This document shows positions 198 through 53,253 of a DNA stretch of 64,000 nt, piece after piece. The notes beneath the pieces were generated by a model. The model did not search any database and was not told the origin of the DNA. It saw only the letters and a list, made by a program, of their open reading frames with translations. The stretch lies in sequence record MT446390.1; one strand, 5' to 3'. Position numbers and translations under genes: made by a program. This DNA is from Escherichia phage TH12. Position 1 is the stretch's first letter; each line of letters starts with the position of its first letter.

Positions 198-214
198 TTG
201 TGTTAACCTTTAAA

Positions 215-1027
215 TTAGAAACGAGATGCGACTTTCGCATATAAACTTACATTAGAATTCTGTTCTACCTGAGTTGTGGTAGTGTCAACTGCTTCGGCAA
301 CAAAATTAAGACCGGCAGCGTCATTGTCAACTGTATTTATACTTTCGGTAATAGCGGCTTCTTCTTTAGTAGAACCTTTGACCATTTCTACAATAGCAGT
401 TAACTTAGTACCAAATGCGTCAGAATAATCCATACCTTCAACCAGGCCAATAACTTTTTCTTTCTGAGATTCAGTCAGGTCTTTTACGCTTTCATTAATA
501 GCGGTTTCACGCTGAACGTAATTGATATATGCATCACGTTTGGTAACTTCTTCGAACAAACGAGCGGTTTCTTCTTTATGTTCGGCCAGCTCTTCTTCCA
601 TTTCTGCTACAACATCTACAGATTCTTCTGGAACAACAACGTTATGTTCAACAAACAGTTCTTTCAGACCACCAAGCATGGATTCGAACAAATCAGCTTT
701 AATGCCTTTATCAACTGCGATTTGGTTTTCTGCGAGCCATTCTTTTGCAAGATGGTCTAGGAATTTAGAAGCTTGTTCAGCCAATTTTTTATCAGCTTTC
801 TCTTCAGCATCTTCTTTGGCCTTTTCAACTTCTTCTTCAGCCTTTTCGGCGATGGCTTTGATATGAGATTCAGCCAGTTTGACTGCTTCCTGCTTAACGG
901 TGGCTTCGAATACAGTGCTGAAATTAGCTTTAACGTCCGGAGACAGTTCTACTGATTCGAAAACACTATTAAGAGCAACTGAAGTCTCGATGTTCTGAGC
1001 TTCTTTCAAAAGTTGTTCTTTGATCAT
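215..1027 (-). CDS. 22: prohead core scaffold protein gp22
   Basis: 270 aa E/K-rich coiled-coil ORF; size and position between 21 and 23 as in T4. Confidence 0.85.
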   Translation of the reverse strand: MIKEQLLKEAQNIETSVALNSVFESVELSPDVKANFSTVFEATVKQEAVKLAESHIKAIAEKAEEEVEKAKEDAEEKADKKLAEQASKFLDHLAKEWLAENQIAVDKGIKADLFESMLGGLKELFVEHNVVVPEESVDVVAEMEEELAEHKEETARLFEEVTKRDAYINYVQRETAINESVKDLTESQKEKVIGLVEGMDYSDAFGTKLTAIVEMVKGSTKEEAAITESINTVDNDAAGLNFVAEAVDTTTTQVEQNSNVSLYAKVASRF

Positions 1028-1057
1028 TTTAGTGTCCTGTGGTTTAGATTACATTAT

Positions 1058-1065
1058 TATTTATA
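1058..1065 (-). promoter_or_regulatory. T4-type late promoter (TATAAATA on minus strand) upstream of gene 22
   Basis: Plus-strand TATTTATA, 31 nt upstream of gene 22 ATG. Confidence 0.55.
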
Positions 1066-1708
1066 ATGCTTTTAAACTCTCTGCGAGAGCTTTAAATGCT
1101 TCGTCAGCACTGTTTTTGGTGATTTCCACCGAATTTTCTGATTCTGATTCTGATATTTGTTTAGGAGTAACCCAAGCATCTGGAGCAGAAGGTCCCCATA
1201 CGGCATCTACGCCGACGGTTAATTTAAATCCTTCGTTCACGATACGGTACCCTTTATTGGTGTCGGTTAAAGAACCAAGACCACGAGAGGAAACACCTGG
1301 AATCCAACCAGCTCGTATATTAGCAGCTAATTTATCGCCGGGACCATGGTCGCCTTCAATAATTCTAGCACGTCCATATACATCGTTTCCTTTCCACCAC
1401 ATATCTTCAATAATGATAGCGGCTTGCATAGGGTCAACATTTGCACGAGGTGGATGGTTTAATTCTCCAAGGGCTTGTTTGGTTGCGACTTGTTCTTTAA
1501 TATAGTCACTTACTGCTTTTTCCAAAACGCGTTTAGGATATAAACGTTTATTTCGGTTAACAACCTCTGCCTGAAGAAAAATACCTTCTATATAAAGCCC
1601 TGGTTTTAAGCCAGAATCTTTTCCATCATGAGATTCCAACATTGGAACGCCATCAATAATCTCACCGGGTTGACCCCAAGTTTCAATAAGTAACTCGGGT
1701 TTATTCAT
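1061..1708 (-). CDS. 21: prohead core protease gp21
   Basis: 215 aa; [42 protein letters not shown]... typical of T4 gp21. Confidence 0.9.
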   Translation of the reverse strand: MNKPELLIETWGQPGEIIDGVPMLESHDGKDSGLKPGLYIEGIFLQAEVVNRNKRLYPKRVLEKAVSDYIKEQVATKQALGELNHPPRANVDPMQAAIIIEDMWWKGNDVYGRARIIEGDHGPGDKLAANIRAGWIPGVSSRGLGSLTDTNKGYRIVNEGFKLTVGVDAVWGPSAPDAWVTPKQISESESENSVEITKNSADEAFKALAESLKAL

Positions 1709-2133
1709 TAGCTTAATCCTAATGCTTTACGACGTTTAAGAGCCTTTTTACGCTTACGCATGCCTTTAACTTGGCCTGAAGGGTTAGCTTTTTTAGCTTT
1801 AACGACCTTACGAGCGATTTGTCTACGTTTTGCTTTAGAAAGACCGGTTGTTTGGAACGCGTTACGTTCACGAGTTTTACGGTCTTTAGTGCGGGTGACT
1901 TCACCACGAGAAGAAACATGTTTAACGATAAACTCATTTAACTGCTCTTCATTAATAATGGAAGCCATTGCAACAGCTAAATCCGTTTCAGTTTCAAGCA
2001 TGTTCTCGATAATAGTATTTATATCGTCAATATCGAGAGCAGAAGACAATGCATCGATTCGGCCCTGTGCTTCAGGAATAAGTGCTTCGACATTTTCGAG
2101 TACCAATTCATAAGATTCAGGGATAAGATACAT
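1708..2133 (-). CDS. 68: prohead core protein gp68
   Basis: 141 aa, basic C-terminus; T4 order 67-68-21. Confidence 0.8.
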
Positions 2134-30660: not shown

Positions 30661-30673
30661 TTTTACAAAACAG

Positions 30674-30707
30674 TTTACATAAGGATGATGGCGTGTTACT
30701 ATCATCC
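30674..30707 (+). promoter_or_regulatory. early promoter with stem-loop (PeSL-like cassette)
   Basis: GTTTAC at 30674-30679, TACTAT 17 nt downstream, inverted repeat GGATGAT/ATCATCC flanking the -10. Confidence 0.6.
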
Positions 30708-30736
30708 TATCAAATAAACGACCTCAAGGAAATAAA

Positions 30737-31024
30737 ATGAAAACCTATAAAGAATTTATATCACCTGATGCTAACGTTTCTACTCTGACTGAAGCAACCC
30801 TTACTTCCGAAGTTATTAAAGCAAATAAAGGACGTGAGGGCAAACCAATGATTAGTCTGGTTGACGGCGAAGAAGTAAAAGGTACTGTTTACTTAGGGGA
30901 TGGATGGTCTGCTAAGAAAGATGGCGCTACTATTGTTATCTCTCCGGCTGAAGAGACTGCACTGTTTAAAGCTAAGCATATTTCTGTAGCTCAGCTTAAA
31001 ATTATTGCAAAAACCCTTCTGTAA
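30737..31024 (+). CDS. ipI: internal protein I (IPI)-like, capsid-targeted
   Basis: 95 aa; N-terminal capsid targeting sequence MKTYKEFI...; C-terminus GWSAKKDGATIVISPAEETALFKAKHIS resembles T4 IPI. Confidence 0.8.
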   Translation: MKTYKEFISPDANVSTLTEATLTSEVIKANKGREGKPMISLVDGEEVKGTVYLGDGWSAKKDGATIVISPAEETALFKAKHISVAQLKIIAKTLL

Positions 31025-31027
31025 GTA

Positions 31028-31065
31028 GTTTACATGCTAATAGGACTATGTTATAGTAGTCCTAT
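31028..31065 (+). promoter_or_regulatory. early promoter / stem-loop cassette
   Basis: GTTTAC -35; 26-nt palindromic element ATAGGACTATGTTATAGTAGTCCTAT at 31040-31065 containing the -10. Confidence 0.6.
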
Positions 31066-31087
31066 CAAAATTAATTAGGAAAATAAA

Positions 31088-31396
31088 ATGAAAACCTATA
31101 AAGAATTTATCAATGAAGCGGCTGCACCAAAGACATTTGTTATTAATACTCAAGCGAGTCTTGATGATGAGTACGCGGATGCAATTCTGAGGTCACTTGC
31201 TAAGAACGGTGTTGAAGTATCTGCATCAGACTTTAAGAAAGGGTCTTCCGAGATGTTTATTTCTATAACTAAAGGATCTAAAGCTAAGATTAAATCATCA
31301 TTCGGAGTTGCTCGCACCGATCAAATCGACAGTCATGACTTTAAACAAACTGGTGTTAAACGGCAGAATACGATTGCATCACGCGGAATAAAATAG
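31088..31396 (+). CDS. internal-protein-like protein with capsid targeting sequence
   Basis: 102 aa; N-terminus MKTYKEFINEAAAPK (CTS-like, Glu at position 10). Confidence 0.65.
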   Translation: MKTYKEFINEAAAPKTFVINTQASLDDEYADAILRSLAKNGVEVSASDFKKGSSEMFISITKGSKAKIKSSFGVARTDQIDSHDFKQTGVKRQNTIASRGIK

Positions 31397-31407
31397 TTTA
31401 TAAAACC

Positions 31408-31444
31408 GTTTACTTTTAGATAGGGTGGTGATACTATTACCCTA
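31408..31444 (+). promoter_or_regulatory. early promoter / stem-loop cassette
   Basis: GTTTAC, TACTAT, inverted repeat TAGGGT/ACCCTA. Confidence 0.55.
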
Positions 31445-31465
31445 TCAACTACTGAGGAGAATAAA

Positions 31466-31651
31466 ATGAAACGCGCTGAACTGATTCGTAATGTTGCTGT
31501 AGTAATTGCTTCAATGGCTTTTAGTTTTTCGATGTTTGTAGGATTCATTTGTGGACTACTGACAACAACAGAAAATTCTATCTCATTGGTAGTAGCATTT
31601 CTAATCGGCTTAATCGCTATCGTTATGGATAAAATTGCAAAAGGTGAGTAA
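31466..31651 (+). CDS. small hydrophobic (membrane) protein
   Basis: 61 aa ORF with RBS GAGGAG; predicted TM helices. Confidence 0.45.
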   Translation: MKRAELIRNVAVVIASMAFSFSMFVGFICGLLTTTENSISLVVAFLIGLIAIVMDKIAKGE

Positions 31652-31652
31652 A

Positions 31653-32015
31653 ATGAAATATCATGTATATGCGGATTTTGAAGCAAATCCTTCTAAAGAC
31701 CCTGATTGTCGTTTGATACGCAAACCATTTGATTCAGCGGCTCAAGCATGGGCTTGGATTAAAACTTGTACTCCTTCTTACACTTTCTTTGAAGTGGTAG
31801 ATGATAACGGCATTCTGCATCCAGAACCTACAGAAACTATTAATTTCCTTCTGTTTGCTGGTTACGACTGTTATCCTCTTGGCGGTATTGACGATCTTGT
31901 TGCTACAGGAAAAACTGTTGAAGCTCTTCGTGAAATCTACAAAAATGCTGAAGAAAATTTTGACTGGTACCAGATTGTAAATGCACATACTTTTGAAGCG
32001 GTGGAACACTCATGA
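31653..32015 (+). CDS. hypothetical protein
   Basis: Start moved to ATG 31653 (MKYHVYADFEANPSKD...) with RBS AAGGTGAG. Confidence 0.5.
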   Translation: MKYHVYADFEANPSKDPDCRLIRKPFDSAAQAWAWIKTCTPSYTFFEVVDDNGILHPEPTETINFLLFAGYDCYPLGGIDDLVATGKTVEALREIYKNAEENFDWYQIVNAHTFEAVEHS

Positions 32016-32302
32016 TTCTTTATGCTAAAGTAAAATCTGTCGAGAATGGATACGAAAGCGATCAACGTGCAGCTAAAGCATTGATCGATGATTATGGCAT
32101 TTTAACATATTTTGAAGTTGAAAAGGTTTACATTGACCGTTCGTCTTCACAGGTTAAATTACTCTGTGAAGATGATAAATTTAACACAGTTAACTTTGAT
32201 TTCTTTATTGAAACAGAAAAAGGCCCTCTTGAATATGATATTTTCAAGAATCCTTTGAAATTACGTTGCATTGAATATAATTACATTAATATGGTACGGT
32301 GA
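32012..32302 (+). CDS. hypothetical protein
   Basis: 96 aa ORF, ATGA overlap with upstream gene. Confidence 0.5.
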   Translation: MILYAKVKSVENGYESDQRAAKALIDDYGILTYFEVEKVYIDRSSSQVKLLCEDDKFNTVNFDFFIETEKGPLEYDIFKNPLKLRCIEYNYINMVR

Positions 32303-32306
32303 TTAA

Positions 32307-32822
32307 ATGAATATTCGATTAGGCAGTACAATTCCTAAGGGCTACGTAATTGATGTCACTACCTATGAAAGTGATGGTGACAACTATAAAACCAAAACAT
32401 TGTTTGAAGTGGAAGAGCATGAGCTCCAACAGTTTAAATATCTCTTGAAGAAATTTAAGAGCCGTCATTCTAGCACCAAAGCCGAACGTTATTGCGGTAA
32501 TACACCATTCGGTCGTTGCTCGCTTATTATCTACGAATATCTGGTTGAAGGACTGTTCTCAGACCAACTCCAACCGGAATTCATTAAAAAGGTCTTTGGT
32601 ATCGAAGTAGACCTTGGTGATAAATCTGAAGAAGACGAAGCCCGCGTATTCGACCTGTTCTTTGTGAAAGGCGATGAGATATCTCAAGGACTTATTGATA
32701 TTCTTGGCTATGCTTCTGAATACTACGACTATGATTTCTTGCGTGTAGTTGAACGTGTTGAATTCGCTTATATTGAAGAAGAAATTGTTTTGCCGACTGT
32801 TAAAATGATTGATTTGCTTTAA
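32307..32822 (+). CDS. hypothetical protein
   Basis: 171 aa ORF in operon context. Confidence 0.5.
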   Translation: MNIRLGSTIPKGYVIDVTTYESDGDNYKTKTLFEVEEHELQQFKYLLKKFKSRHSSTKAERYCGNTPFGRCSLIIYEYLVEGLFSDQLQPEFIKKVFGIEVDLGDKSEEDEARVFDLFFVKGDEISQGLIDILGYASEYYDYDFLRVVERVEFAYIEEEIVLPTVKMIDLL

Positions 32823-32901
32823 GAATTATGTGTTATTATTAATTCATACCCTCTATTACCAAAGGTGCTCTAAAGTGCCTTTCATAATAGAAAGTTATTA
32901 A

Positions 32902-32976
32902 GGCCCTGTAGCTCAATGGGAGAGCTGTCAGCTCATAACTGATAGGTAGCTGGATCGAAACCAGCCAGGGTCACCA
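32902..32976 (+). tRNA. tRNA, anticodon CAT (Met or Ile2/lysidine type)
   Basis: Manual cloverleaf: acceptor GGCCCTG/CAGGGTC, D-arm GCTC-AATGGGA-GAGC, anticodon loop CTCATAA, T-arm GCTGG-ATCGAAA-CCAGC, discriminator A + CCA. Confidence 0.7.
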
Positions 32977-32979
32977 ATC

Positions 32980-33056
<77 letters not shown>

Positions 33057-33074
33057 ACTTTAAGTGAGGAAAAT

Positions 33075-33419
33075 ATGAAAGGCAATATTTATTTTGTAGT
33101 TCATGATTTAACGTTTTATTTTAATGAATATGATACAGTTATTTCTCATCGATTGATTAATTCACTTTATCAGCATGCCGATTACATCTATGTTCAAAAT
33201 GAATTCGGACATTGGAAGTTCATTAAAAACCGTTCAGGGTTAACTAGTTTTGAATACTTTGATCGTAAAGACCTTTTAAACGAAATCCCATTGCAACATC
33301 GGTTTCAGAAACGTGAATCATTATATTATTGCCGTCATATACCAAACGCCGAATGTGTTAATGAAGCGATTAATCTATGGCGTCGGCGTCGAGAGCAAAT
33401 TGATGATATGCCAAAATAA
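33075..33419 (+). CDS. hypothetical protein downstream of tRNA pair
   Basis: Start trimmed to ATG 33075 (MKGNIYFVVHDL...) with RBS GAGGAAA; the longer track ORF overlaps tRNA-Arg. Confidence 0.45.
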   Translation: MKGNIYFVVHDLTFYFNEYDTVISHRLINSLYQHADYIYVQNEFGHWKFIKNRSGLTSFEYFDRKDLLNEIPLQHRFQKRESLYYCRHIPNAECVNEAINLWRRRREQIDDMPK

Positions 33420-33519
33420 GAAGCCGGGTCGCTACCGGCAAGTCGTCGGACTGATGTTCCCTGAGTAAGGACTGGTCTTAATAAATCTTTACGATTTGTT
33501 AATATCCCCTTACATCACA

Positions 33520-33680
33520 GCAGAAACGGCGCACAGAATTATCGATTCGAGGAAATATCTTTGCCGTAAGCCGAGTAGCGTTTTTGACGGAACGTTCGGA
33601 TATGGTCGAGATATGGCCTTTTAAAAATATTGAGTAGCGTCAACTGCTTAATAACCGGGTTCGAATCCCGGCGTTTCGTA
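33520..33680 (+). ncRNA. candidate structured small RNA (tRNA-like T-arm motif); boundaries approximate
   Basis: No ORF; contains CCGGGTTCGAATCCCGG (T-arm-like) but no complete cloverleaf could be folded by eye; T4 carries small stable RNAs (rnaC/rnaD) in its tRNA cluster. Confidence 0.25.
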
Positions 33681-33722
33681 CAAACACTTGCCTTAGTAGG
33701 TGGAAACCCCGACAAGGTATAT

Positions 33723-33752
33723 AGCCCCTTCCGAAAGGTTGGGGCTTTTTTG
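33723..33752 (+). terminator. rho-independent terminator
   Basis: AGCCCC-ttccgaaaggtt-GGGGCT followed by TTTTTT. Confidence 0.7.
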
Positions 33753-33760
33753 TATAAATA
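33753..33760 (+). promoter_or_regulatory. late promoter TATAAATA
   Basis: TATAAATA 36 nt upstream of ATG 33796. Confidence 0.5.
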
Positions 33761-33795
33761 TAGTAAACAATAAACCTACTTTCTAAGGACCATCA

Positions 33796-34422
33796 ATGTA
33801 TACTTTTAATGAATTTTTAGCCGAAACGGAAGTAATCACCGAAGCCGGTGTACGTATGACAAAAGAGAAATGGCAAGCTGCTTACGATGCTATTTCTGGT
33901 ACAAAAACTAGTACAGAGTTTTTCAAAAACGTTCAAGCCATGTACGGTATCGACACTTCCAGCCAAAAAGAATATTACAGAGCTTCTAAAGCATTCAAAG
34001 ATATTGTTAGTGGTGGTGTTTCTGCTAAATCTGGTTCGCCTAAAGTAAAACCTGCTCCTACCATTCCTAAACCTGCGACCCCTAAAGCAATAGCAAAACC
34101 TGAGCCTAAGCCGGAAGTAAAAGCAACTCCTAAAGCTCCCGCTCTTAAGTTTGATACTTCTAGCCTGGAAAAAAAATATAAACAACTATCTTCGCTTGTT
34201 CGTGATATTGAATCCGATACATCTTCACTCGTTCGTGAATTCAACAGTCTTCGTAATGGCCAACATATCAACAACCTTGATACCCCAGACCTTTATCGTC
34301 TTTATTTGACTATCGAAGGTTTGAAGTATACTCAACCACTTCACGATGCGATTAAAGAAAAACTTCGTCAGGCAGGTCGTTTGGCCGCTGACGCTGCTCA
34401 GTATGCAAAAACTCGTAAGTAA
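33796..34422 (+). CDS. internal-protein-like protein (IPIII-like), capsid-targeted
   Basis: 208 aa; N-terminus MYTFNEFLAETEVITEAG resembles a capsid targeting sequence; Lys/Pro/Ala-rich basic middle region; preceded by a late promoter. Confidence 0.55.
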   Translation: MYTFNEFLAETEVITEAGVRMTKEKWQAAYDAISGTKTSTEFFKNVQAMYGIDTSSQKEYYRASKAFKDIVSGGVSAKSGSPKVKPAPTIPKPATPKAIAKPEPKPEVKATPKAPALKFDTSSLEKKYKQLSSLVRDIESDTSSLVREFNSLRNGQHINNLDTPDLYRLYLTIEGLKYTQPLHDAIKEKLRQAGRLAADAAQYAKTRK

Positions 34423-34427
34423 AGAAT

Positions 34428-34446
34428 GGGGACTTCGGTCCCCTTT
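34428..34446 (+). terminator. terminator hairpin
   Basis: GGGGAC-ttcg-GTCCCC tetraloop hairpin then TTTAGG. Confidence 0.5.
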
Positions 34447-34474
34447 AGGGGGTCTATAACTTACTGAAAAAGTT

Positions 34475-34503
34475 GTTTACTTCTTCCCTAGATGTGTTAC
34501 TAT
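34475..34503 (+). promoter_or_regulatory. early promoter
   Basis: GTTTAC, 17 nt, TACTAT. Confidence 0.55.
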
Positions 34504-34531
34504 GGTCCTATTAAAACATGAGGAGAATAGT

Positions 34532-34837
34532 ATGAGTCTTTATACTGAACTGAATAAAAAATCTGAAGAATCTGCTGAAACTATTTTTAAAAACGTGCAA
34601 AAGCGTATTTTAGAAAAGATGTATAACACTGCAGCTAAAGGTGAAAAATCTTGCCGGTTCCCGATGAGGTGTTCTTCTGATTTATGCGCAAATACTATTG
34701 AATGGCTGGAAAGTGAAGGTCTTACGGTAGAGAAAAACCCGGCGATTTCTATTGACAGCGAATCATATATTAGTATTTCTTGGGATAAACCACGTACGAA
34801 TGAAGGATACTACAAGTTGTTAAGTTGGAAAAATTAA
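34532..34837 (+). CDS. hypothetical protein
   Basis: Start set to ATG 34532 (MSLYTELNKKSEES...) after RBS GAGGAGAA. Confidence 0.5.
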   Translation: MSLYTELNKKSEESAETIFKNVQKRILEKMYNTAAKGEKSCRFPMRCSSDLCANTIEWLESEGLTVEKNPAISIDSESYISISWDKPRTNEGYYKLLSWKN

Positions 34838-34905
34838 AAATAATGATGTACAAACACCAAGGATGGTGATACTATAGACTTATCAACTACAGAGGAGTAA
34901 ACAAA

Positions 34906-35070
34906 ATGACTACTTTAATTATTTGGTTCGATGAAAATGAAGAAACATACTGTGTGAATATTGGTGAAAGTCCAATGCCTGAATTTGAATCCTCAGATAA
35001 AAACTCTGTTGTATCTTGGGCTGAAGGTTATAAAGCCGCTAAAGGTGACGTTGAAATAATTTACATCTAA
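34906..35070 (+). CDS. small hypothetical protein (54 aa, not in ORF track)
   Basis: ATG preceded by RBS AGAGGAG and an upstream promoter-like cassette; reads MTTLIIWFDENEETYCVNIGESPMPEFESS... Confidence 0.4.
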   Translation: MTTLIIWFDENEETYCVNIGESPMPEFESSDKNSVVSWAEGYKAAKGDVEIIYI

Positions 35071-35117
35071 GTACGTTTATGTTATAGTAATCACATCAAA
35101 TCAAGAGGAGAAACAAA

Positions 35118-35372
35118 ATGGCTAAAGTTAGTATTGATGTCGTTGATTACGAATACACCGAAGAAGTTATTCGCAACCGTCACCCTGAAGTTCGTATCGA
35201 TTCAGCCCAAGATTCCAAGTTCTGGACAACTGAGCTTAATCTGAGTGGTCCTTATGAAGCTGTTAAGAAGTTCATGGTTGAAGAATACTGTGAAGGCATG
35301 CACCCCGAAGACGCCAAGTTTTATGTCAATTTGATTAAAAATAATTTACAAACTCTTGAGAGCAGAGTATAA
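35118..35372 (+). CDS. hypothetical protein
   Basis: 84 aa ORF with RBS AGAGGAGA. Confidence 0.5.
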   Translation: MAKVSIDVVDYEYTEEVIRNRHPEVRIDSAQDSKFWTTELNLSGPYEAVKKFMVEEYCEGMHPEDAKFYVNLIKNNLQTLESRV

Positions 35373-35414
35373 TGCTCTCATTGGATAATAAACCACCAAT
35401 TGAAAGGTAATAAT

Positions 35415-36008
35415 ATGAACACACTGAAGAAACTTGTTGAATTCATCCGCACTAAACTGGGTACTGCTATGGCTAAAAATCTGACTGTCGAAGAACAGTA
35501 TAACGCAGCTGCAGATAAGTTGATTACCCAAATCAAAGAACTAAAAACGGCTTCTGTTAAATCTATTAATGAAGAAAAACGTATTCGCGAACTTGTTATT
35601 GAAAAGAATAAGCAAGCCGCTTCTAAGGAACGTGAAATTCGTAAGCTCCTGGCTGAAGGACAAGATGTTACCATGCATGCTAAGCTTGGTCTTCTGTATC
35701 GTCGAACTGCCGAACAACTTAATACAAAAGCTGACGGGTATGCCGCTATGCGAATTGAAATTGCTCGTAAGGTGGTTGAACTTGATGATGCTCGTCAGAA
35801 TCTGGCAATCAAACTCGAATACATTCGTGAAACTCGAGCAGCCAATGCCCTTGGTATCTCTACGGCTGATGATGTAATTGAAATCGCTGCACTGACTAAG
35901 GTTGATATCGAAGACACTCTGACTCGTGTTGAAACGTTCAATGGTACTCCAGCCGGTGTCGAAACCACTTCTGCTGATGTACAAGAATATATTAACTCTT
36001 TGAAATAA
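35415..36008 (+). CDS. coiled-coil protein, possibly PspA/IM30-like
   Basis: Start at ATG 35415 ([23 protein letters not shown]...); long amphipathic helices reminiscent of PspA; followed by a terminator. Confidence 0.45.
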
Positions 36009-36016
36009 AATAATAC

Positions 36017-36038
36017 GGAGGACTCCGGTCCTCCTTTT
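36017..36038 (+). terminator. rho-independent terminator
   Basis: GGAGGAC-tccg-GTCCTCC followed by TTTTGG. Confidence 0.6.
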
Positions 36039-36057
36039 GGATAATAAAGGAGTTAAC

Positions 36058-36654
36058 ATGCGAAACCAAAATAATGATATTGACTCAATGTTCGAAGAGT
36101 TCCGAGATAAGGTAAATCCACCTACGTCTTTAGTTGATTCATTACGATATGTTGCAACCGGACGTAAATGGTACTGGTCGTCTTCTTATGAGACAACTGA
36201 ATATGCAAATAACCGAAAATCTTTATTAGCCCCAGGTATTATGATTCATGATATCGGAGCTATTGCTAAACTAGTTGCAGACCATGATATTAGATTCACT
36301 GATTTCGTTGCTCCTACGTGGTCTGTTTGTTGTTTAAACACCGAATGGGACTATATCAGTGAACGTTCAGATGATTACGTAGGCTTTAGAGACAAGCTTT
36401 TAAGGTCTAACATGTTTTATATTGATACAGAAGTTCTTGTCAATAATAAAAAATACTACTTCACTTTAATCGTCGATTCTGAAACTATGTATGAAGGCAA
36501 GCCTTTGCTTAAGAGAGTTGATGCTTTAAGTGCTATTGATGCGCTTTATGAAACTATGGTTGTTAGTCCTAATTTCACTAACAATTTAATCCTTGAGCAA
36601 TTTATTATGGAATGTAGAGAATATGTCAAAGCCAACCCTATACATGCCAAGTAA
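36058..36654 (+). CDS. hypothetical protein
   Basis: Start at ATG 36058 (MRNQNNDIDSMFEEF...) with RBS AAAGGAG. Confidence 0.5.
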   Translation: MRNQNNDIDSMFEEFRDKVNPPTSLVDSLRYVATGRKWYWSSSYETTEYANNRKSLLAPGIMIHDIGAIAKLVADHDIRFTDFVAPTWSVCCLNTEWDYISERSDDYVGFRDKLLRSNMFYIDTEVLVNNKKYYFTLIVDSETMYEGKPLLKRVDALSAIDALYETMVVSPNFTNNLILEQFIMECREYVKANPIHAK

Positions 36655-37015
36655 GCCCTGGGCGTATGAATACAAGCGTAAATTAATCCCAAATGAAGTA
36701 CTATTTGGCCCTATTTTAGCTTTAGCATTTTTAATCTTTATGATTATAGGAGCCGTTTTAGATTCTAGTGAAGTTATATCGTCTGATGCAGCATTTTCAT
36801 TAATGTTCGACGCACCACTTATTGTACCGTTTTTATTAATGCCTATTAACTGGATGGGATATTGGTACCAAGGACGTCATCACAGAGCCCGATTAAGAGA
36901 ATGGAAAGTTCAGTGCGCAAAAGCCCAAGCTCAGTATGATGAAGCTGTTAAAAAGTATGAATATGAAGAAGCTATGGAATTCGTTAAGGAAATAAGATGC
37001 AAAAGCCTTAACTGA
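36623..37015 (+). CDS. hypothetical membrane protein
   Basis: Start at ATG 36623 (MSKPTLYMPSKPWAYEY...); two hydrophobic helices. Confidence 0.45.
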   Translation: MSKPTLYMPSKPWAYEYKRKLIPNEVLFGPILALAFLIFMIIGAVLDSSEVISSDAAFSLMFDAPLIVPFLLMPINWMGYWYQGRHHRARLREWKVQCAKAQAQYDEAVKKYEYEEAMEFVKEIRCKSLN

Positions 37016-37113
37016 ATTTATGCTGTTTACGCTTCTCAAATGATTAGTTATAATGAACTCCTAGCTAAACGTGAAAATGAAACAATCGAAAACTTTATTA
37101 AGGAATGTAGAAA

Positions 37114-37419
37114 ATGAGTAAGATTATTGAAATTAAAGTACCAGAGTTTAATGATGCCAAATCCGCTTCAGATGCAATTTATAAACTTCTGAATCAAGCT
37201 GAACGTATCGAAGAAGAAGCAACAAAGATCGCAGACCAATATGCAGTATCATTTTCTGTAGGTGATTATGGTAGCGGCCGTACTTATTATCCTAAGGGTG
37301 AAATCGTATCCCAGTGGATGAAAGATGAAATTGAAAATAATGGTGGCGATGTTAAGCGTGAAGGTAATGGTTACGTTATTACTGAAGGTGCTTGGGTTTC
37401 GTCTTCTGCGTTGTGCTAA
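37114..37419 (+). CDS. hypothetical protein, paralog family member A (C-terminal GAWVSSSALC)
   Basis: 101 aa ORF with RBS; shares YG-G-TY--PG and C-terminal GWVSSS--C motifs with the next two ORFs. Confidence 0.5.
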   Translation: MSKIIEIKVPEFNDAKSASDAIYKLLNQAERIEEEATKIADQYAVSFSVGDYGSGRTYYPKGEIVSQWMKDEIENNGGDVKREGNGYVITEGAWVSSSALC

Positions 37420-37428
37420 GGAATCATT

Positions 37429-37701
37429 ATGTCTAAAGAACAAACCGAACTGGCTGAAGCTGTAGCAAAAATCTATGCAGCTATTGAGGCTGCCAAAGAA
37501 ATTGCTAATAAACAAAACACAACATTCAACTTGTATCCAGCTTATGGCATGGGTGGAACCTATCATTCACCAGGACATCTTAAAGCCGATCTTGAACGTT
37601 GTACAAAAAACGGTTATGCTGAATGGGCCGACGTTTACCAATACGACTACAACTTGAGCCTTGAAGATGGTGGTTGGGTTGCATCTTCTCACACTTGTTA
37701 A
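37429..37701 (+). CDS. hypothetical protein, paralog family member B (C-terminal GGWVASSHTC)
   Basis: 90 aa ORF; conserved junction TAAGGAATCATTATG. Confidence 0.5.
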   Translation: MSKEQTELAEAVAKIYAAIEAAKEIANKQNTTFNLYPAYGMGGTYHSPGHLKADLERCTKNGYAEWADVYQYDYNLSLEDGGWVASSHTC

Positions 37702-37710
37702 GGAAATCAT

Positions 37711-37908
37711 ATGTCTCGTGAATTAGATTGTGCTGTACGTACGGCCGTAGCTGCTCTAGAAAACCTGTTCCAGATTGCAACCGAAGAGCGTGAAGAAGTT
37801 ACATTGTGGATTGAAGATAATGCAGGTCTGAATCTCCAGGACGCAATCTCGTTATCAAATAATAGTATTACTGTTCAAGGCTGGGTATCATCTAGTTATT
37901 CTTGCTAA
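37711..37908 (+). CDS. hypothetical protein, paralog family member C (C-terminal QGWVSSSYSC)
   Basis: 65 aa ORF; conserved junction TAAGGAAATCATATG. Confidence 0.5.
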   Translation: MSRELDCAVRTAVAALENLFQIATEEREEVTLWIEDNAGLNLQDAISLSNNSITVQGWVSSSYSC

Positions 37909-37913
37909 AACAG

Positions 37914-37950
37914 TTTACAACAAGATAGGGCTATGTTATAGTAGTCCTAT
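37914..37950 (+). promoter_or_regulatory. early promoter / stem-loop cassette
   Basis: GTTTAC -35; element ATAGGGCTATGTTATAGTAGTCCTAT, one mismatch from the 31040 copy. Confidence 0.6.
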
Positions 37951-37970
37951 CAAATTAAATGGAGACAACA

Positions 37971-38210
37971 ATGGTTTATTACGAAAGTATAGGAACCGAA
38001 GTAGTTGCTAAAACTATTACTCGTGAAAAGTTTGCAAAGATATTCGATATGCGTTATAAAAAATCTGAACACAAAGGCATCCGATTCGAAGATGCGCACT
38101 GTACAATTTGCCCTTATAATGAAGACATAAACGGCACAATCGTTCCATTAGTAGAGGCTTCACATGACGACCTCTGGGATGAATATAATATCGCATGTCG
38201 CGAAATTTAA
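37971..38210 (+). CDS. hypothetical protein
   Basis: Start at second ATG (MVYYESIGTEVVAK...), which has RBS GGAGACAACA. Confidence 0.5.
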   Translation: MVYYESIGTEVVAKTITREKFAKIFDMRYKKSEHKGIRFEDAHCTICPYNEDINGTIVPLVEASHDDLWDEYNIACREI

Positions 38211-38235
38211 GTAATCTAAATTCGAGGAAAATATT

Positions 38236-39192
38236 ATGATGTTAGTTATTGGTTCTCGTGCACTTCACTATCACGGTCTTATTGATTCTAGCGCTATCAA
38301 AAATAGTGACTGGGACTTTATTGCGGACCAAGGTTCTTGGAATGTATTCAAAAATCAAATGATGGGTGTATATGTTCACCAAGATAACCCTGATGTCCAA
38401 GTTTTCAAATGCTTCCATAATGGACGCGAAACTCATTTTGAAGCATATATTGTTCCGGCAATCACTAATGTCCGTGAATTAGTCGGTGAACTCACTCCTG
38501 AAGATTTCACGTCTTCTTATGACCTTTTAAAATACGCCAAGAAAAATTTGACTAAAGACCGTTTGAACGGGTTTTACTGGGCAACTCCTGAGATGTGTCT
38601 TGCAATTAAGATGTCTCATCGTTTCAAGAAAAATAATCCATTCTTTTTAAAGACTATGAACCATATTCAGTATCTTCGTGGTAAAGGTGTTACACTTAAC
38701 GATGAACTTACTGAAATTATGCTGAAACGCCAGAAAGAAACCTTGAACTATGCTCACCCAGTTCTTGACACTTCTAAAAGCGCATTCTTTAAAGATGACA
38801 TCTATACGTATGACCATGATACTATTCACGAAGCCATTGCACTAACAGACCGTCCAGCGTATACATTTTATATGAAAGATGGTTCTGAAGTCATGACCTC
38901 ACGCGAGAAGTTCGAATCATTACCAGAAATGGTCAAATTAGCCGGCGTATACGAAGAATCATGTGTACTAGCGTTAGAACGTTCTCAGATTCCTAATAAC
39001 TTTGAAATCCATCCACGTGATAGTTTTATGATGGCATTAGAAAAAGTCTGTACTTCAATCACGTCAGGCTGGTTCCGTGAATACGCTTGGGAAAACTACA
39101 GCAAAGTTGTAAGTATGTACCAAAGCTTAGGACATGACGATTATGTAAAACGTTTTAAACAAAATTTCCATATGGTAAAACCTTTCAAATAA
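38236..39192 (+). CDS. hypothetical protein with possible nucleotidyltransferase-fold motif
   Basis: 318 aa; N-terminal VIGSRALHYHGLIDSSAIKNSDWDF resembles the G[GS]...DxD NTase signature with a longer spacer. Confidence 0.5.
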   Translation: MMLVIGSRALHYHGLIDSSAIKNSDWDFIADQGSWNVFKNQMMGVYVHQDNPDVQVFKCFHNGRETHFEAYIVPAITNVRELVGELTPEDFTSSYDLLKYAKKNLTKDRLNGFYWATPEMCLAIKMSHRFKKNNPFFLKTMNHIQYLRGKGVTLNDELTEIMLKRQKETLNYAHPVLDTSKSAFFKDDIYTYDHDTIHEAIALTDRPAYTFYMKDGSEVMTSREKFESLPEMVKLAGVYEESCVLALERSQIPNNFEIHPRDSFMMALEKVCTSITSGWFREYAWENYSKVVSMYQSLGHDDYVKRFKQNFHMVKPFK

Positions 39193-39204
39193 TTTCGCAA
39201 AACT

Positions 39205-39242
39205 GTTTACACAATTATAGGACTATGTTATAGTAGTCCTAT
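39205..39242 (+). promoter_or_regulatory. early promoter / stem-loop cassette
   Basis: GTTTAC; exact copy of the 26-nt element ATAGGACTATGTTATAGTAGTCCTAT at 39217-39242. Confidence 0.6.
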
Positions 39243-39262
39243 TAAAACATGAGGAGAATATT

Positions 39263-39568
39263 ATGAAATTAGGCGAAACCAACCGAATTGGTCTTTTAAC
39301 TATATTTGTATCACTTTTTTACGTAGCTCTTTCTGTTGCAGTATTACAAAAGGCTTACGATATGGATGGTGTTCCTGGTTTTGTATTCTTATCACCATTT
39401 TTATTATTCGTCGGGGCTTTGTTATTATATGCCACGACTAGTTTTGACCATAACGTCTGGGTTAATTATAAATGTAAATTGTCTGAAGAAGAACACGCAG
39501 AAGCTCGTAAAAAAGCTATTGAATCTACCAATCTAGAAAATTTCATTAAAGAATGTCGAGGAAAATAA
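39263..39568 (+). CDS. hypothetical membrane protein
   Basis: 101 aa; two hydrophobic helices; RBS GAGGAGAA. Confidence 0.5.
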   Translation: MKLGETNRIGLLTIFVSLFYVALSVAVLQKAYDMDGVPGFVFLSPFLLFVGALLLYATTSFDHNVWVNYKCKLSEEEHAEARKKAIESTNLENFIKECRGK

Positions 39569-39569
39569 T

Positions 39570-40256
39570 ATGAATAGTTCTAAAGTGTTTAATAGTCAAG
39601 CTCGTGCAGTAGGTGGTTTTGCTCATAACGTACAAAATGACCAAATCAAAAATGAACCAATGTTCTTTAACTGTGATTTGAGTTTTGCTTGGGATAACGG
39701 CGGTCCTATTACTCGTAGCTTTATTGCCAATCTCCCAATTGATTGGACTAATCAACATGTTGTATTTGATTCTCGGGTTCATATGCTGATGCCTGGTTGG
39801 TATCCTGCTATTCCTGGATATCACCATGACGATGTTCCTCGCCCTGATATTCCAGTCGGCCAACACTTTATTACTGCAGGACAACCTGACTATGATAACC
39901 CTCGTTACCATTCTGAACATATTCTTGGTCTTGTTAACGCTGACGTGTGTCCTACTCATTTTGCAACAGGAACTGCAGAGTTCAGTCAGATTCCTGATGG
40001 CGAACTTATCTATCGCCAATGGCACAAAGAAGTCCTCGAAAAAATTGAAAAAGGTGAACTAGAGAAATGGGAAGCTCCAGACCGTACTCTTCTTCAGTTT
40101 GATTGGCAAACATGGCACACTGGTTCTCGTGCAATTAGTAATGGATGGCGTTGGTTCGGACGTGTATCTCGTAATACAGACCGAGTTAAAAAGATTACCA
40201 ATGAAATTCGTGTCAATGCCCAAGTTTATCTGGAATTCCCTATGGAAGGCTGGTAA
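39570..40256 (+). CDS. hypothetical protein
   Basis: 228 aa ORF, His/Trp-rich; translationally coupled to upstream gene. Confidence 0.55.
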   Translation: MNSSKVFNSQARAVGGFAHNVQNDQIKNEPMFFNCDLSFAWDNGGPITRSFIANLPIDWTNQHVVFDSRVHMLMPGWYPAIPGYHHDDVPRPDIPVGQHFITAGQPDYDNPRYHSEHILGLVNADVCPTHFATGTAEFSQIPDGELIYRQWHKEVLEKIEKGELEKWEAPDRTLLQFDWQTWHTGSRAISNGWRWFGRVSRNTDRVKKITNEIRVNAQVYLEFPMEGW

Positions 40257-40747
40257 TGATTAACAAAACATATTGGTCTAATATTGACGACGGCAATGAA
40301 GGTATTTCATACTATTCAGTAGATTGGACAGGATGTCCATCCTACTTAGTGAAACGTATTTGTCAAGAATTTAAAATCGACCAGCCAGCAGGTATTATCG
40401 TGAACAGATACATTAATGGATATCAACCTATCGATGAAGTAATACGAACAACTCAAGCTGATCTTGAAAAGTTTTTCAATAAGTGTCAATGGATAACAGG
40501 ATGGATTATATTTGTACCGTCGGTATGGTTTTTTAGTACTAAAGTAAGTGCCTTTGCCATACCAGATATTATCGCTATCTTATTAGCATCTACTATCGTA
40601 AGTATTATTGGTGGTATTATTGGTGGAGGTACTATAGGCATCATTATTAATCTTGTTAAAAGTAGTTTACAGGAACGTAAAGACAAGATAAAGGCCAAGA
40701 ATAATGAAGTTGAACGTTTTATTACCGAATGCAGGAATTTGAGATGA
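40256..40747 (+). CDS. hypothetical membrane protein
   Basis: 163 aa; C-terminal Gly/Ile-rich TM segments. Confidence 0.5.
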   Translation: MINKTYWSNIDDGNEGISYYSVDWTGCPSYLVKRICQEFKIDQPAGIIVNRYINGYQPIDEVIRTTQADLEKFFNKCQWITGWIIFVPSVWFFSTKVSAFAIPDIIAILLASTIVSIIGGIIGGGTIGIIINLVKSSLQERKDKIKAKNNEVERFITECRNLR

Positions 40748-40980
40748 GTATAGCAATTTACATTAAATCAGAATCATGTGATAGTTATCTGTACACATAT
40801 GATAAAGATGTGTCAGAAGAAAAAATCAAAGACGATCTTAATATGGACCTTGATTTGTTCAGTCCTATTGCAGATTACAAACTTGCGGTCTCTAATAGTG
40901 AAAGTCCATCTAAAGAAACGCGTATTGAAGAATTTATGTCCGAATTAATGGCCAAATCATGGGACCGAGATGATGAGTAA
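40729..40980 (+). CDS. small acidic hypothetical protein
   Basis: 83 aa ORF overlapping neighbours. Confidence 0.4.
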   Translation: MQEFEMSIAIYIKSESCDSYLYTYDKDVSEEKIKDDLNMDLDLFSPIADYKLAVSNSESPSKETRIEEFMSELMAKSWDRDDE

Positions 40981-41428
40981 GAAAAATAAAGTGAAAGAAC
41001 TATCAGCCGGTATTATCTTCATGACAAAAGATAAAGAATTATTCATGGGTCGTGTAACTGGTTCTCGTCCTAAAGGTGCATTAGCTCATCGGTGGGATAT
41101 TCCTAAAGGCCGTGTCGAACCTGGCGAATCTCCTATCGAAGCCGCTATTCGTGAATGCGAAGAAGAAACTGGGTTTACACAATATGACCCTGCCTTCCTG
41201 AAAGACCTAGGTGAACATCATTACTCAGATAATAAGAATATTCATCTGTTCCTATATACCATCCCTGTAGAGCACGAGCAATTCAGAAACAGTGTTTGTA
41301 ATTCATATCATACATTCCCGGACGGACGACAGATTCCTGAATTTGATGCATTCGCTTTAATTAAACCTTCTCAATGGGAATATGTAATGGGCAAATCATT
41401 ATATAAGGTGCTCACTACCATCCTATAA
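40970..41428 (+). CDS. nudE: Nudix hydrolase NudE (e.1)
   Basis: 152 aa; Nudix box GRVEPGESPIEAAIRECEEETG; immediately upstream of e as in T4. Confidence 0.85.
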   Translation: MMSKKNKVKELSAGIIFMTKDKELFMGRVTGSRPKGALAHRWDIPKGRVEPGESPIEAAIRECEEETGFTQYDPAFLKDLGEHHYSDNKNIHLFLYTIPVEHEQFRNSVCNSYHTFPDGRQIPEFDAFALIKPSQWEYVMGKSLYKVLTTIL

Positions 41429-41462
41429 GTAATAAATACCTCCTATAAACGTGGGAGGTATT

Positions 41463-41951
41463 ATGAATATATTTGAAATGCTTCGTAATGACGAAGGTCT
41501 TAGACTGACTTTATACAAAGACACTGAAGGCTTTTGGACGATTGGCATAGGCCATTTAGTAACAAAGAACCCGTCTTTAGCCGTAGCTAAAGCTGAACTT
41601 GACAGAATGATCGGTCGTAAATGCAACGGTACAATTACCCTTGATGAGGCTGAAAAGCTATTTAATGAAGACGTCGATAAAGCCGTTCGCGGAATCTTGG
41701 GTAATGCTAAACTTAAACCGGTATATGATTCTTTAGACGCGGTTCGTCGATGTGCATTGGTCAATATGGTCTTCCAAATGGGTGTAGCAGGCGTTGCTGG
41801 TTTTACTAATTCTCTTCGTATGCTTCAACAGAAACGTTGGGATGAAGCGGCAGTAAATCTCGCCCAATCTAAATGGTATCGTCAGACACCTAATCGCGCG
41901 AAACGCGTAATCTCAACATTTAAAACAGGAACTTGGAAAGCGTATATATGA
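41463..41951 (+). CDS. e: endolysin (T4 lysozyme, gene e)
   Basis: Start at internal Met ([32 protein letters not shown]...); near-identical to T4 lysozyme including catalytic E11/D20/T26 context. Confidence 0.95.
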
Positions 41952-42229
41952 AAACATATAGTGAATTTTTATCAGAATCTATTCTTAACGAAGCTACTGA
42001 CACATTTGCAACTAAGCTAGGTGCAGCTTTGGTTGAAGCCGAAAGTCTATTAGCACGTATTTCTGAACTTGCTAGTAAGATAGATACTCGCAAATTTGAA
42101 CGTACCAGCGATATCGCTAAGCTTGAAGCCTTGTTACGTATGTGCGATAAACCGGAAGAAATCGCTAAGAACGGCTCGCTGATGAAACAACGTCTTGAAA
42201 AATATATTTCAGGCGCTTCAGAAAAATAG
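41933..42229 (+). CDS. internal-protein-like protein with capsid targeting sequence
   Basis: 98 aa; N-terminus [18 protein letters not shown]. Confidence 0.6.
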
Positions 42230-42230
42230 T

Positions 42231-42284
42231 GTTTACTTCCTCCAAGGGTTTTGATACTATACATTCATCAACTACTTGGAGGAA
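42231..42284 (+). promoter_or_regulatory. early promoter for denV embedded in a 10-bp inverted repeat that pairs the RBS
   Basis: GTTTAC at 42231-42236, TACTAT at 42255-42260; TTCCTCCAAG (42237-42246) is the exact reverse complement of CTTGGAGGAA (42275-42284). Confidence 0.6.
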
Positions 42285-42287
42285 ATT

Positions 42288-42701
42288 ATGACTCGTATCA
42301 ATTTAACACTTGTTTCTGAACTGACCGATCAACATCTTATGGCTGAGTATCGTGAATTACCACGCGTATTTAGTGCAGTCCGTAAACATGTCCAAAACGG
42401 TAAACGTGTAAAGGATTTTAAAATCTCTCCAACATTTATCTTAGGCACAGGTCACGTAACATTCTTTTACGACAAACTTGAATTTTTACGTTTACGACAA
42501 ATCGAGCTAATCGCTGAATGCTTGAAACGTGGTTTCAAAATCAAGGACACGACAGTCCAGGATATTTCCGACATCCCTGCCGAATTTCGTAATAATTATG
42601 TCCCGTCCGAAGCGTCCGTTGCGATAAGTCAAGCACGCTTAGATGAAAAAATTGCTCAACGTCCTACTTGGTACAAATACTATGGTAAATCAATTTACTA
42701 A
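42288..42701 (+). CDS. denV: endonuclease V, pyrimidine dimer DNA glycosylase (DenV)
   Basis: Start at [28 protein letters not shown]...; near-identical to T4 DenV. Confidence 0.95.
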
Positions 42702-42707
42702 GGAAAA

Positions 42708-42968
42708 ATGAAAATGTATCAAGAATTTATCATTGAAGCAGATGCCAAAGGTCCTAAATTTAAAGTTAAAGCTTTCATTGGTGATGCCGAAGACTTTGGC
42801 TCATTAAAACGTAATGGGTATTCTTTCTTAGGTGGCGATGGTAAAGAAATCAACACCTATGCAAAACGTAGTGAAATTGCTTATGTTGTAGTAAATCCTA
42901 AAGTAGATGTTGACGATATTGGATACGATTTTAACAACTTCGGAATTATTTCTGGCGGTAAAGCTTAA
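42708..42968 (+). CDS. internal-protein-like protein with capsid targeting sequence
   Basis: 86 aa; N-terminus MKMYQEFIIEADAKG. Confidence 0.6.
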   Translation: MKMYQEFIIEADAKGPKFKVKAFIGDAEDFGSLKRNGYSFLGGDGKEINTYAKRSEIAYVVVNPKVDVDDIGYDFNNFGIISGGKA

Positions 42969-42971
42969 ATT

Positions 42972-43001
42972 GTTTACGCTTAAGTATTAATATGGTATAA
43001 T
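42972..43001 (+). promoter_or_regulatory. early promoter
   Basis: GTTTAC, 18 nt, TATAAT. Confidence 0.6.
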
Positions 43002-43032
43002 TACTCTATCAAAACAAACAAGGAAACAAAAA

Positions 43033-43335
43033 ATGAAAACATATCAAGAATTTATTACTGAAGCGCGAGTGAGTGCAGGTAAATTAGAAGCCGCTATAAA
43101 TAAAAAGGCCCATTCATTTCATGATTTGTCCGATAAAGACCGTAAGAAACTTGTAAGCCTTTATATTGACAAAGAGCGTATTCTCGCTCTTCCTGGCGCT
43201 AATGAAGGTAAACAGGCCAAGCCTTTGAATGCTGTCGAAAAGAAAATTGATAACTTTGCTTCTAAATTCGGTATGTCTATGGATGACCTTCAGCAAGCGG
43301 CTATCGAAGCAGCTAAAGTAATTAAAGGTAAATAA
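43033..43335 (+). CDS. ipII: internal protein II (IPII)-like, capsid-targeted
   Basis: 100 aa; N-terminus MKTYQEFITEARVSAGKLEAA...; basic. Confidence 0.7.
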   Translation: MKTYQEFITEARVSAGKLEAAINKKAHSFHDLSDKDRKKLVSLYIDKERILALPGANEGKQAKPLNAVEKKIDNFASKFGMSMDDLQQAAIEAAKVIKGK

Positions 43336-49127: not shown

Positions 49128-49334
49128 ATGCTTTACGATTATACTGGAAAATCTGAAGACGGTGTACTTGAACTTTTACCTGAAAGCGCTGAAGATGATG
49201 ATATGGTGGTGATGTTTTGTAAAAATGGCCCTGGGGATAAGGGATGGATTTATCTTCGCCAAGAAAATGACCTAATTGTTTTAGACCCTAAACAAGTTGA
49301 AGAACTTTATCAACATTTAAAACACAATCGGTAG
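49128..49334 (+). CDS. small hypothetical protein
   Basis: Start at ATG 49128 (MLYDYTGKSEDG...) after RBS TGAGGA. Confidence 0.45.
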   Translation: MLYDYTGKSEDGVLELLPESAEDDDMVVMFCKNGPGDKGWIYLRQENDLIVLDPKQVEELYQHLKHNR

Positions 49335-49372
49335 TTTACATCTTGGTAGGACTATGTTATAGTAGTCCTACC
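49335..49372 (+). promoter_or_regulatory. early promoter / stem-loop cassette
   Basis: GTTTAC; inverted repeat GGTAGGACTA/TAGTCCTACC around TGTTATAG. Confidence 0.6.
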
Positions 49373-49391
49373 AAAACAAACGGAGAACAAA

Positions 49392-53197: not shown

Positions 53198-53231
53198 GTT
53201 TACAAGGTCTATGGTTGTGTTATTATAGACC
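53198..53231 (+). promoter_or_regulatory. early promoter / stem-loop cassette
   Basis: GTTTAC; TATTAT; inverted repeat GGTCTAT/ATAGACC. Confidence 0.55.
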
Positions 53232-53253
53232 TATCAACTACTGGAGGTAAAAC

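Follow-up and report, generated by a model that had tools for sequence, protein, structure and literature searches.

The internal proteins of T-even phages are understood, in what is now the accepted model, as a set of anti-restriction proteins that carry an N-terminal capsid targeting sequence (CTS) and are injected into the host (PMC3012670, PMC9026906, PMC12373910). In T4, the 10-residue leader is sufficient on its own for the packaging of foreign proteins; residues 4 and 7 matter for targeting and residues 8 and 10 for processing (PMC9026906), and the diversity of CTS-bearing internal proteins (Ips) has been described as one of defence proteins (PMC3012670). Silas et al. (2025) reported that T4 Ip1, Ip2 and Ip3 inhibit GmrSD enzymes, a different one in each case, that the target of Ip2 is the GmrSD of ECOR21, and that "at least 10" further Ips are recognised by their signal sequence (PMC12373910). 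Srikant et al. found that IPIII is required on ECOR17 (PMC9391042). Here, we analyse a 64,000-nucleotide stretch of Escherichia phage TH12 (MT446390.1; "the window" denotes this whole 64-kb stretch), in which six open reading frames (ORFs) between positions 30737 and 43335 begin with leaders of this type. In their 1994 EMBO J paper, Repoila et al. reportedly described Ip4-Ip13 of the RB phages, at the ipI locus only, as unrelated small proteins joined to a conserved CTS. This RB-phage set (records such as Z35082.1) includes Ip7, which corresponds to the window gene at 31088.

We estimate a probability of roughly 0.8 that the six genes encode CTS-bearing internal proteins processed by gp21, the prohead protease, with higher confidence for Ip1, IpII and Ip7 and lower confidence for a protein of 208 amino acids (aa). 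A T4-type set of CTS internal proteins is an ordinary and well-documented T-even feature, and earlier records already cover the concept as well as five of the six genes. The view of these proteins as CTS-tagged, gp21-cleaved, co-injected candidate anti-restriction effectors is supported by the sequence but restates the accepted model. Novelty is confined to the 208-aa family and its locus, which are probably Ip genes as well. The function of the CTS leader, its cleavage, the copy number of the proteins and the inhibition of GmrSD by T4 Ip1, Ip2 and Ip3 are all taken from the literature.

An earlier note on this DNA had reported six ORFs with CTS leaders, and all six were confirmed on the plus strand; the start given for the sixth, 41933, was not. 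Position 41933 is a TTG that adds 5 residues before the leader, and the true CTS start is the ATG at 41948, which is the annotated start in Shf125875 and RB69 and overlaps the stop codon of the lysozyme gene (e) as ATGA. With the start placed at this ATG, all six proteins share the N-terminal CTS pattern M-K/x-T/x-Y/F-x-E-F-I/L. The regular expression M[KY][TM][YF].EF[IL] matched at exactly six sites in the six-frame translation of the 64 kb, whereas 100 shuffles gave no match. A position-specific scoring matrix (PSSM) built from 21 leaders gave the six genes scores of 24-37 bits, leaving a 16-bit gap to the runner-up among Met-initiated ORFs in the window, at 7.8 bits. Neither the regular expression nor the PSSM found further CTS ORFs elsewhere in the window. 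Each of the six genes is conserved as an intact ORF in 138 to about 500 phage records.

The cleavage motif [L/I]-x-E occurs within the first 19 residues of all six proteins. It ends at residue 10 in Ip7 (I-N-E10), the 208-aa protein (L-A-E10), a 93-aa protein (L-S-E10), an 86-aa protein (I-I-E10) and IpII (I-T-E10). Ip1 has a Pro at residue 10 instead of E10 and carries L-T-E at residues 17-19, the counterpart of I-T-E19 in T4 IPI. A second motif is present in the 93-aa protein (L-N-E15) and in the 208-aa protein (I-T-E16). At the DNA level, the first 30 nucleotides (nt) of the six genes are 60-87% identical in pairwise comparisons, against 23-36% over the following 90 nt. The mature parts are indeed unrelated to one another, as the earlier note had proposed: pairwise BLASTP of the leader-trimmed proteins gave no significant match. 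The 86-aa protein was considered as a member of the Ip7 family by its match to phrog_2667 (9e-21) and rejected. The leader-trimmed profiles of Ip7 and the 86-aa protein align with a probability of 0.3%, the same as the reversed-sequence control, so we read the PHROG match as driven by the leader or by a heterogeneous cluster. Scans with PADLOC and NCBIfam returned only low-complexity noise.

The window is of Mosigvirus (RB69-like T-even phage) origin. Over the 14 kb around the six genes, it is 95-98% identical to many genomes of this genus, among them those of Escherichia phage LF82-1, Shigella phage Shf125875, JS09 and HX01. On the plus strand, the genes follow the order 1, 57A, 57B, ipI, trna.4-.2, tRNA-Met/Arg, the e.x genes, nudE, e, denV, ipII and vs.8, which mirrors T4 coordinates 62-78 kb. 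All but one of the six genes fall inside the two described ip loci, 57B-trna.4 and e-vs.8. The first of these, the classical ipI locus, holds the Ip1 and Ip7 genes, and the classical e-denV-ipII locus holds the genes of the 93-aa protein, the 86-aa protein and IpII. The gene at 33796, which encodes the 208-aa protein, lies outside both, at a third site flanked by rnaC and the e.x genes. Public collections already contain exact copies of all six protein sequences, and five of them are named internal head or virion protein by at least one source (RefSeq, UniRef). The PHROG families of the named genes are likewise annotated as internal head or virion protein.

The ipI orthologue (30737..31024, plus strand, 95 aa), which the earlier note had called IPI-like, is 88% identical to T4 IPI. 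It matches the Pfam family IPI_T4 (PF11634; GmrS/GmrD inhibitor IPI*) at 1.4e-50 over residues 20-95, with 169.6 bits against a cut-off of 25, and on this sequence evidence Ip1 is a member of that family. The same residues align to residues 1-76 of PDB 2JUB (IPI*) at 6e-42, so that the match begins at residue 20, the boundary predicted by cleavage after E19. The protein starts with MKTYKEFISP and reaches LTE-A at the predicted cut; cleavage after L-T-E19 of the 19-residue leader MKTYKEFISPDANVSTLTE would release a 76-aa IPI*-like mature protein. The adjacent ip7 gene (31088..31396, plus strand, 102 aa, leader MKTYKEFINE-A) encodes a protein with 94% identity to RB15 Ip7 (Z35082.1) that also matches RB32 Ip7, and its mature part is basic, with an isoelectric point (pI) of about 9.7. 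Database sources name it "Ip7 protein" or "internal head protein," and it matches phrog_2667 ("internal head protein") at 4e-42.

The three genes of the second locus are similarly recognised. The 93-aa protein (41948..42229, plus strand; L-S-E10-S and L-N-E15-A) is an internal head protein of the RB69 ORF127c type that matches phrog_3499 ("internal head protein") at 2e-46. Its gene occupies the slot of T4 ipIII, after e, and is represented in 496 phage records; RefSeq names RB69p127 "internal head protein." The 86-aa protein (42708..42968, plus strand, leader MKMYQEFIIE-A) is of the RB69 ORF125c type, begins 7 nt past the denV stop codon and is matched by 217 phage records, and RB69p125 is again "internal head protein" in RefSeq. 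The ipII orthologue (43033..43335, plus strand, 100 aa, leader MKTYQEFITE-A) matches phrog_7857 at 4.5e-55 and is 93% identical to T4 IPII over 100/100 residues, in agreement with its earlier description as IPII-like. Searching PDB sequences with Ip7, IpII and the 93-aa and 86-aa proteins gave nothing meaningful.

The 208-aa protein (33796..34422, plus strand) is a probable internal protein, so far unrecognised, from a third ip locus, given a CTS variant in all members of its family, a late-promoter-like unit and a constant position across genera. Its leader, MYTFNEFLAE-T, is followed by I-T-E16-A. The proposal that MYTFNEFLAE is a variant CTS holds up across the family, whose N termini keep a CTS-like leader: MKTYNEFLNE, the canonical form, in the JS98 orthologue (orf135), MLKFKEFISE in CBH8, MLNFKEFITE in PG7, MLKFKDILTE in Marfa, and MITFNEFLNE and MLKFNEFLAE in other members. 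A CTS variant is present in every member even though the remainder of the protein diverges to about 33% identity, and Glu16 in the I/L-x-E motif is nearly invariant. Among 138 matching phage records, the protein is labelled "hypothetical" in each listed one that annotates it; the named cluster members of the family are all hypothetical or uncharacterised, and its PHROG family, phrog_2280, is of "unknown function." An exhaustive profile search with the family returned 13 matches among 1.84 billion representatives.

In Mosigvirus, Dhakavirus, Karamvirus, Winklervirus and Marfavirus, the 208-aa gene keeps a constant position, with the tRNA/rnaC cluster immediately before it and e.8/e.6 after it. 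CTS proteins at this rnaC-e.8 site are also found in RB69, Shf125875, JS98, PG7, Marfa and CBH8. Shf125875 encodes a 154-aa protein there (MKSYAEFLTE) that is 41% identical to a family member matching the profile at 9.5e-11, and RB69 encodes p149/p148 (MKTYAEFLTE), a divergent and apparently frameshifted relative. The RB69 ORFs ORF149c and ORF148c (NC_004928.1, locus 10929-11491, minus strand) appear to be the halves of a single CTS protein of ~190 aa, interrupted by a frameshift that may be genuine or a sequencing error; in the second frame, a helical C-terminal region follows. Upstream of the 208-aa ORF in the window, a terminator-like hairpin (AGCCCC...GGGGCT plus a T-run) is followed by the T4 late-promoter box TATAAATA (33723..33760, plus strand; box at 33753-33760, 36 nt from the ORF), and the gene thus stands as a self-contained late unit. 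The same box is kept upstream of the homologues in JS98 and PG7, reads CATAAATA in Marfa and has near-matches in CBH8. Between the tRNA genes and the 208-aa ORF lies a near-identical homologue of the T4 stable RNA rnaC (species 1 RNA; ~33541-33680, plus strand), a region over which Rfam reported nothing at the gathering threshold.

An AlphaFold2 (AF2) model of the 208-aa protein has a predicted local distance difference test score (pLDDT) of 73 overall. The leader is disordered, the N-domain (residues 19-73) is helical, the linker (74-112) is rich in Pro, Ala and Lys and disordered, and the C-domain (113-208) forms three helices with a pLDDT of about 92. A fold search of this model against PDB and BFVD retrieved only generic helical hairpins and the protein's own family, and a PDB sequence search gave no match. 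The relative P0137 keeps the N-domain and linker and has a different C-domain. Without its leader, the protein is 21.9 kDa with a pI of 9.7, and T4 IPIII is of a similar size at ~20 kDa (PMC9026906). We considered and rejected homology to IPIII, as the profile aligns to IPIII only over residues 1-27, the leader region, with a probability of 22.8%; tblastn with IPIII found no homologue in the window. With moderate confidence, we propose that the family marks a third ip locus in five genera and represents a late-transcribed, two-domain, IPIII-sized protein with swappable C-domains that would be packaged by means of its variant CTS and injected, whether as a new class of anti-defence effector or as a DNA-associated substitute for IPIII. 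The protein is not small, and it may have a structural or DNA-binding role.

Comparison with the ip loci of other T4-like phages, which the earlier note had suggested, places the same two loci in T4 and leader-type ORFs in the syntenic stretch of RB69. The window and T4 share the leader (MKTYQEFIAE in T4 IPII and IPIII), the [L/I]-x-E cleavage logic of gp21 and two loci, and the Ip1 and IpII of the window are direct orthologues of the T4 proteins (88% and 93%). Unlike T4, the window has no IPIII homologue and carries the unrelated 93-aa protein in the slot after e, has denV between two ip genes, and possesses an extra ip7 after ipI as well as the extra locus with the 208-aa gene. The description of the set as "expanded" is accurate relative to the three genes of T4 but not relative to the genus, since the syntenic 16 kb of RB69 contains seven leader-type ORFs: p156, p155 (ipI), p149, p127, p125, p124 and p123, six of which have an intact MKTY/MKMY-type leader. 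By this comparison, six such genes are normal for Mosigvirus.

RB69, the type phage of Mosigvirus, belongs to the same genus as the window and is syntenic with it; the 93-aa and 86-aa proteins correspond to its p127 and p125, and p149 is its CTS protein at the rnaC-e.8 site. In contrast to the window, RB69 lacks ipII and has ORF124c and ORF123c in its place, its Ip7-like gene stands before ipI rather than after it, and its third-locus protein is the divergent p149/p148. These gene-by-gene differences in repertoire are the expected hypervariability already described for ip loci. RB69p127 (NC_004928.1, locus 2423-2704, minus strand) is almost identical to the 93-aa protein of the window except at residues 5-13, and its leader is degenerate (MKTYMNFYQN, MKTYMNFYQNLSLNE), which suggests either damage to this leader in RB69 or a tolerance of the leader for large changes.

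The window also encodes the machinery expected to act on the leaders. Gene 21, for the prohead core serine protease responsible for removing CTS leaders, lies at 1064..1711 on the minus strand (Pfam Peptidase_S77 at 3e-107; PDB 5JBL at 1.3e-124) and is 100% identical to gp21 of Shf125875. Gene 22, the scaffolding core protein, lies at 218..1030 on the minus strand (Pfam T4_CASP at 1.5e-89) and is 100% identical to gp22 of Shf125875. Both are part of a prohead core module at 3-2372 (minus strand) comprising gp67, gp68, gp21, gp22 and the start of gp23, so the cognate protease and the scaffolding core are encoded by the same phage. With gene 21 in the window, the protease that would process the six leaders is phage-encoded, ~29 kb from the first ip gene.

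Taken with the published work on T4, these features are consistent with a mechanism of four steps. During prohead assembly, the N-terminal CTS of ~10 residues would bind the gp22 scaffolding core. The gp21 protease would then cut after the Glu of [L/I]-x-E, at residue 10 in most of the proteins and at residue 19 in Ip1; the 93-aa and 208-aa proteins may be cut at residues 15-16 as well. The mature proteins would remain in the head with the DNA and be ejected with it into the cell, where they would neutralise first-line defences, above all type IV restriction enzymes of the GmrSD family, which act on DNA with sugar-modified cytosines. BrxU, an enzyme of this family, cleaves Mosigvirus DNA, in which 5-hydroxycytosine is mono- and di-arabinosylated (PMC13390438), and this makes type IV restriction a plausible target of Mosigvirus Ips. 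For Ip7 and the 93-aa, 86-aa and 208-aa proteins, we infer both packaging and anti-defence roles. The prevailing hypothesis gives each protein an anti-defence role, for which there is proof only in the case of the T4 orthologues of Ip1 and IpII.

Several observations weigh against this interpretation. Three of the mature proteins are near-neutral (pI 6.3-6.8) rather than basic, and the AF2 model of the 86-aa protein is unusable (pLDDT 42.7). When ip4-10, including ip7, were assayed against 15 GmrSD groups, no reproducible inhibition was observed (PMC12373910, Suppl. Fig. 9). The searchable literature yielded no usable virion proteomics for any Mosigvirus, JS98, fHe-Yen9-01 or the 208-aa family; likewise, no data were found in the literature on inhibition of modification-dependent nucleases by the 93-aa, 86-aa or 208-aa proteins. 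Finally, a canonical late promoter within 140 nt is present only at the 208-aa gene, and TATAAATA is missing there for the other five. We rejected this last point as an argument against packaging, because the proven ip genes of T4 (ipI, ipII and ipIII) have the same GTTTAC-type upstream arrangement.

In the window, a GTTTAC-N17 early-type promoter lies ahead of each of ipI, ip7 and ipII and, for the first two, is embedded in a stem-loop. The one upstream of ipI (30673..30716, plus strand) consists of GTTTAC followed by AGGATGAT...ATCATCCT enclosing the -10 box, and similar plus-strand early-promoter cassettes of the GTTTAC type lie upstream of ip7 (31028-31066) and ipII (42972-43001). Of the other two genes in the e-denV-ipII locus, that of the 93-aa protein is coupled to e and that of the 86-aa protein directly follows denV.

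Of the other explanations, the one that survives best holds that some of the proteins, chiefly the 208-aa protein and perhaps the helical 93-aa protein, are packaged mainly for head morphogenesis or DNA condensation rather than for inhibition of defences. The 208-aa protein suits such a role in its IPIII-like size, its basic charge, its 40-residue disordered linker between coiled helical domains in the AF2 model and its own late promoter, as structural genes have. The window also lacks an IPIII homologue where T4 has one, and T4 IPIII mutants are slower in head assembly and form polyheads (PMC9026906). However, T4 IPIII itself proved to be a GmrSD inhibitor (PMC12373910). In addition, the 208-aa family is patchy within Mosigvirus, with divergent alleles in Shf125875 and RB69, and its C-domain is swapped in P0137, a pattern more in keeping with an accessory gene in an arms race than with a core structural gene. 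We regard a mainly morphogenetic role as unlikely, at about one chance in four.

Considerably less probable is that the shared 5' end has been kept mainly as a cassette for recombination and translation initiation, with some of its carriers being ordinary early cytoplasmic proteins that are never packaged. The DNA identity of the first 30 nt, the early-promoter cassettes flanking ipI, ip7 and ipII, and the degenerate leader of the otherwise nearly identical RB69p127 would all fit this explanation. It sits poorly with the 208-aa family, in which the leader is kept at the protein level despite DNA divergence and despite the low identity elsewhere, and with the cleavage-site Glu present in every window copy; moreover, the 10-residue leader is by itself able to package foreign proteins in T4 (PMC9026906). 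The notion that the ORFs or their motif are chance features or annotation artefacts, for which only the mis-set TTG start at 41933 could be cited, is refuted by the empty shuffles, the PSSM gap and the intact ORFs across phage records, and its probability is negligible.

Packaging of all six proteins, with processing by gp21, is the reading we prefer, and proteins delivered from the head are known from other phages too. Like P22 gp7/16/20, the T7 core proteins and the inner-body proteins of phiKZ and SPN3US, they would be packaged in the head and delivered with the DNA, and the inner-body proteins of giant phages are also processed by a gp21-like prohead protease (PMC5694885). Unlike the T-even Ips, those proteins lack the MKTYxEFIxE leader, and in most cases they build a trans-envelope conduit or an inner body instead of working as soluble inhibitors of restriction enzymes.

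Internal proteins enter the cell together with the DNA and are the fastest counter-defence available to a phage. Mosigvirus DNA is arabinosylated rather than glucosylated and is still cut by GmrSD-family enzymes, so the differing Ip repertoire of this genus is a sensible place to seek new inhibitor-nuclease pairs. The repertoire also bears on host-range prediction for therapeutic T4-like phages. In practical terms, the analysis yields a corrected start site, a genus-typical gene count and one extra candidate family for Ip screens.

Two further features of the window were recorded. Early-promoter stem-loop cassettes, composed of GTTTAC and an inverted repeat enclosing the -10 box (e.g., ATAGGACTAtgttatagTAGTCCTAT), are repeated at 30673-30716, 31028-31066, 31408-31446, 37913-37950, 39205-39243, 49334-49375 and 53198-53235, directly 5' of ipI, ip7 and several small ORFs. 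They resemble the "promoter-early stem-loop" elements of T4-type phages, which have been proposed as mobile regulatory cassettes through which genes are shuffled. At 37114-37908 on the plus strand, three small paralogous ORFs in tandem (101, 90 and 65 aa) correspond to the RB69 ORF139c-136c region and share a G-W-V-[S/A]-S-S-x-x-C end (GAWVSSSALC, GGWVASSHTC and QGWVSSSYSC).

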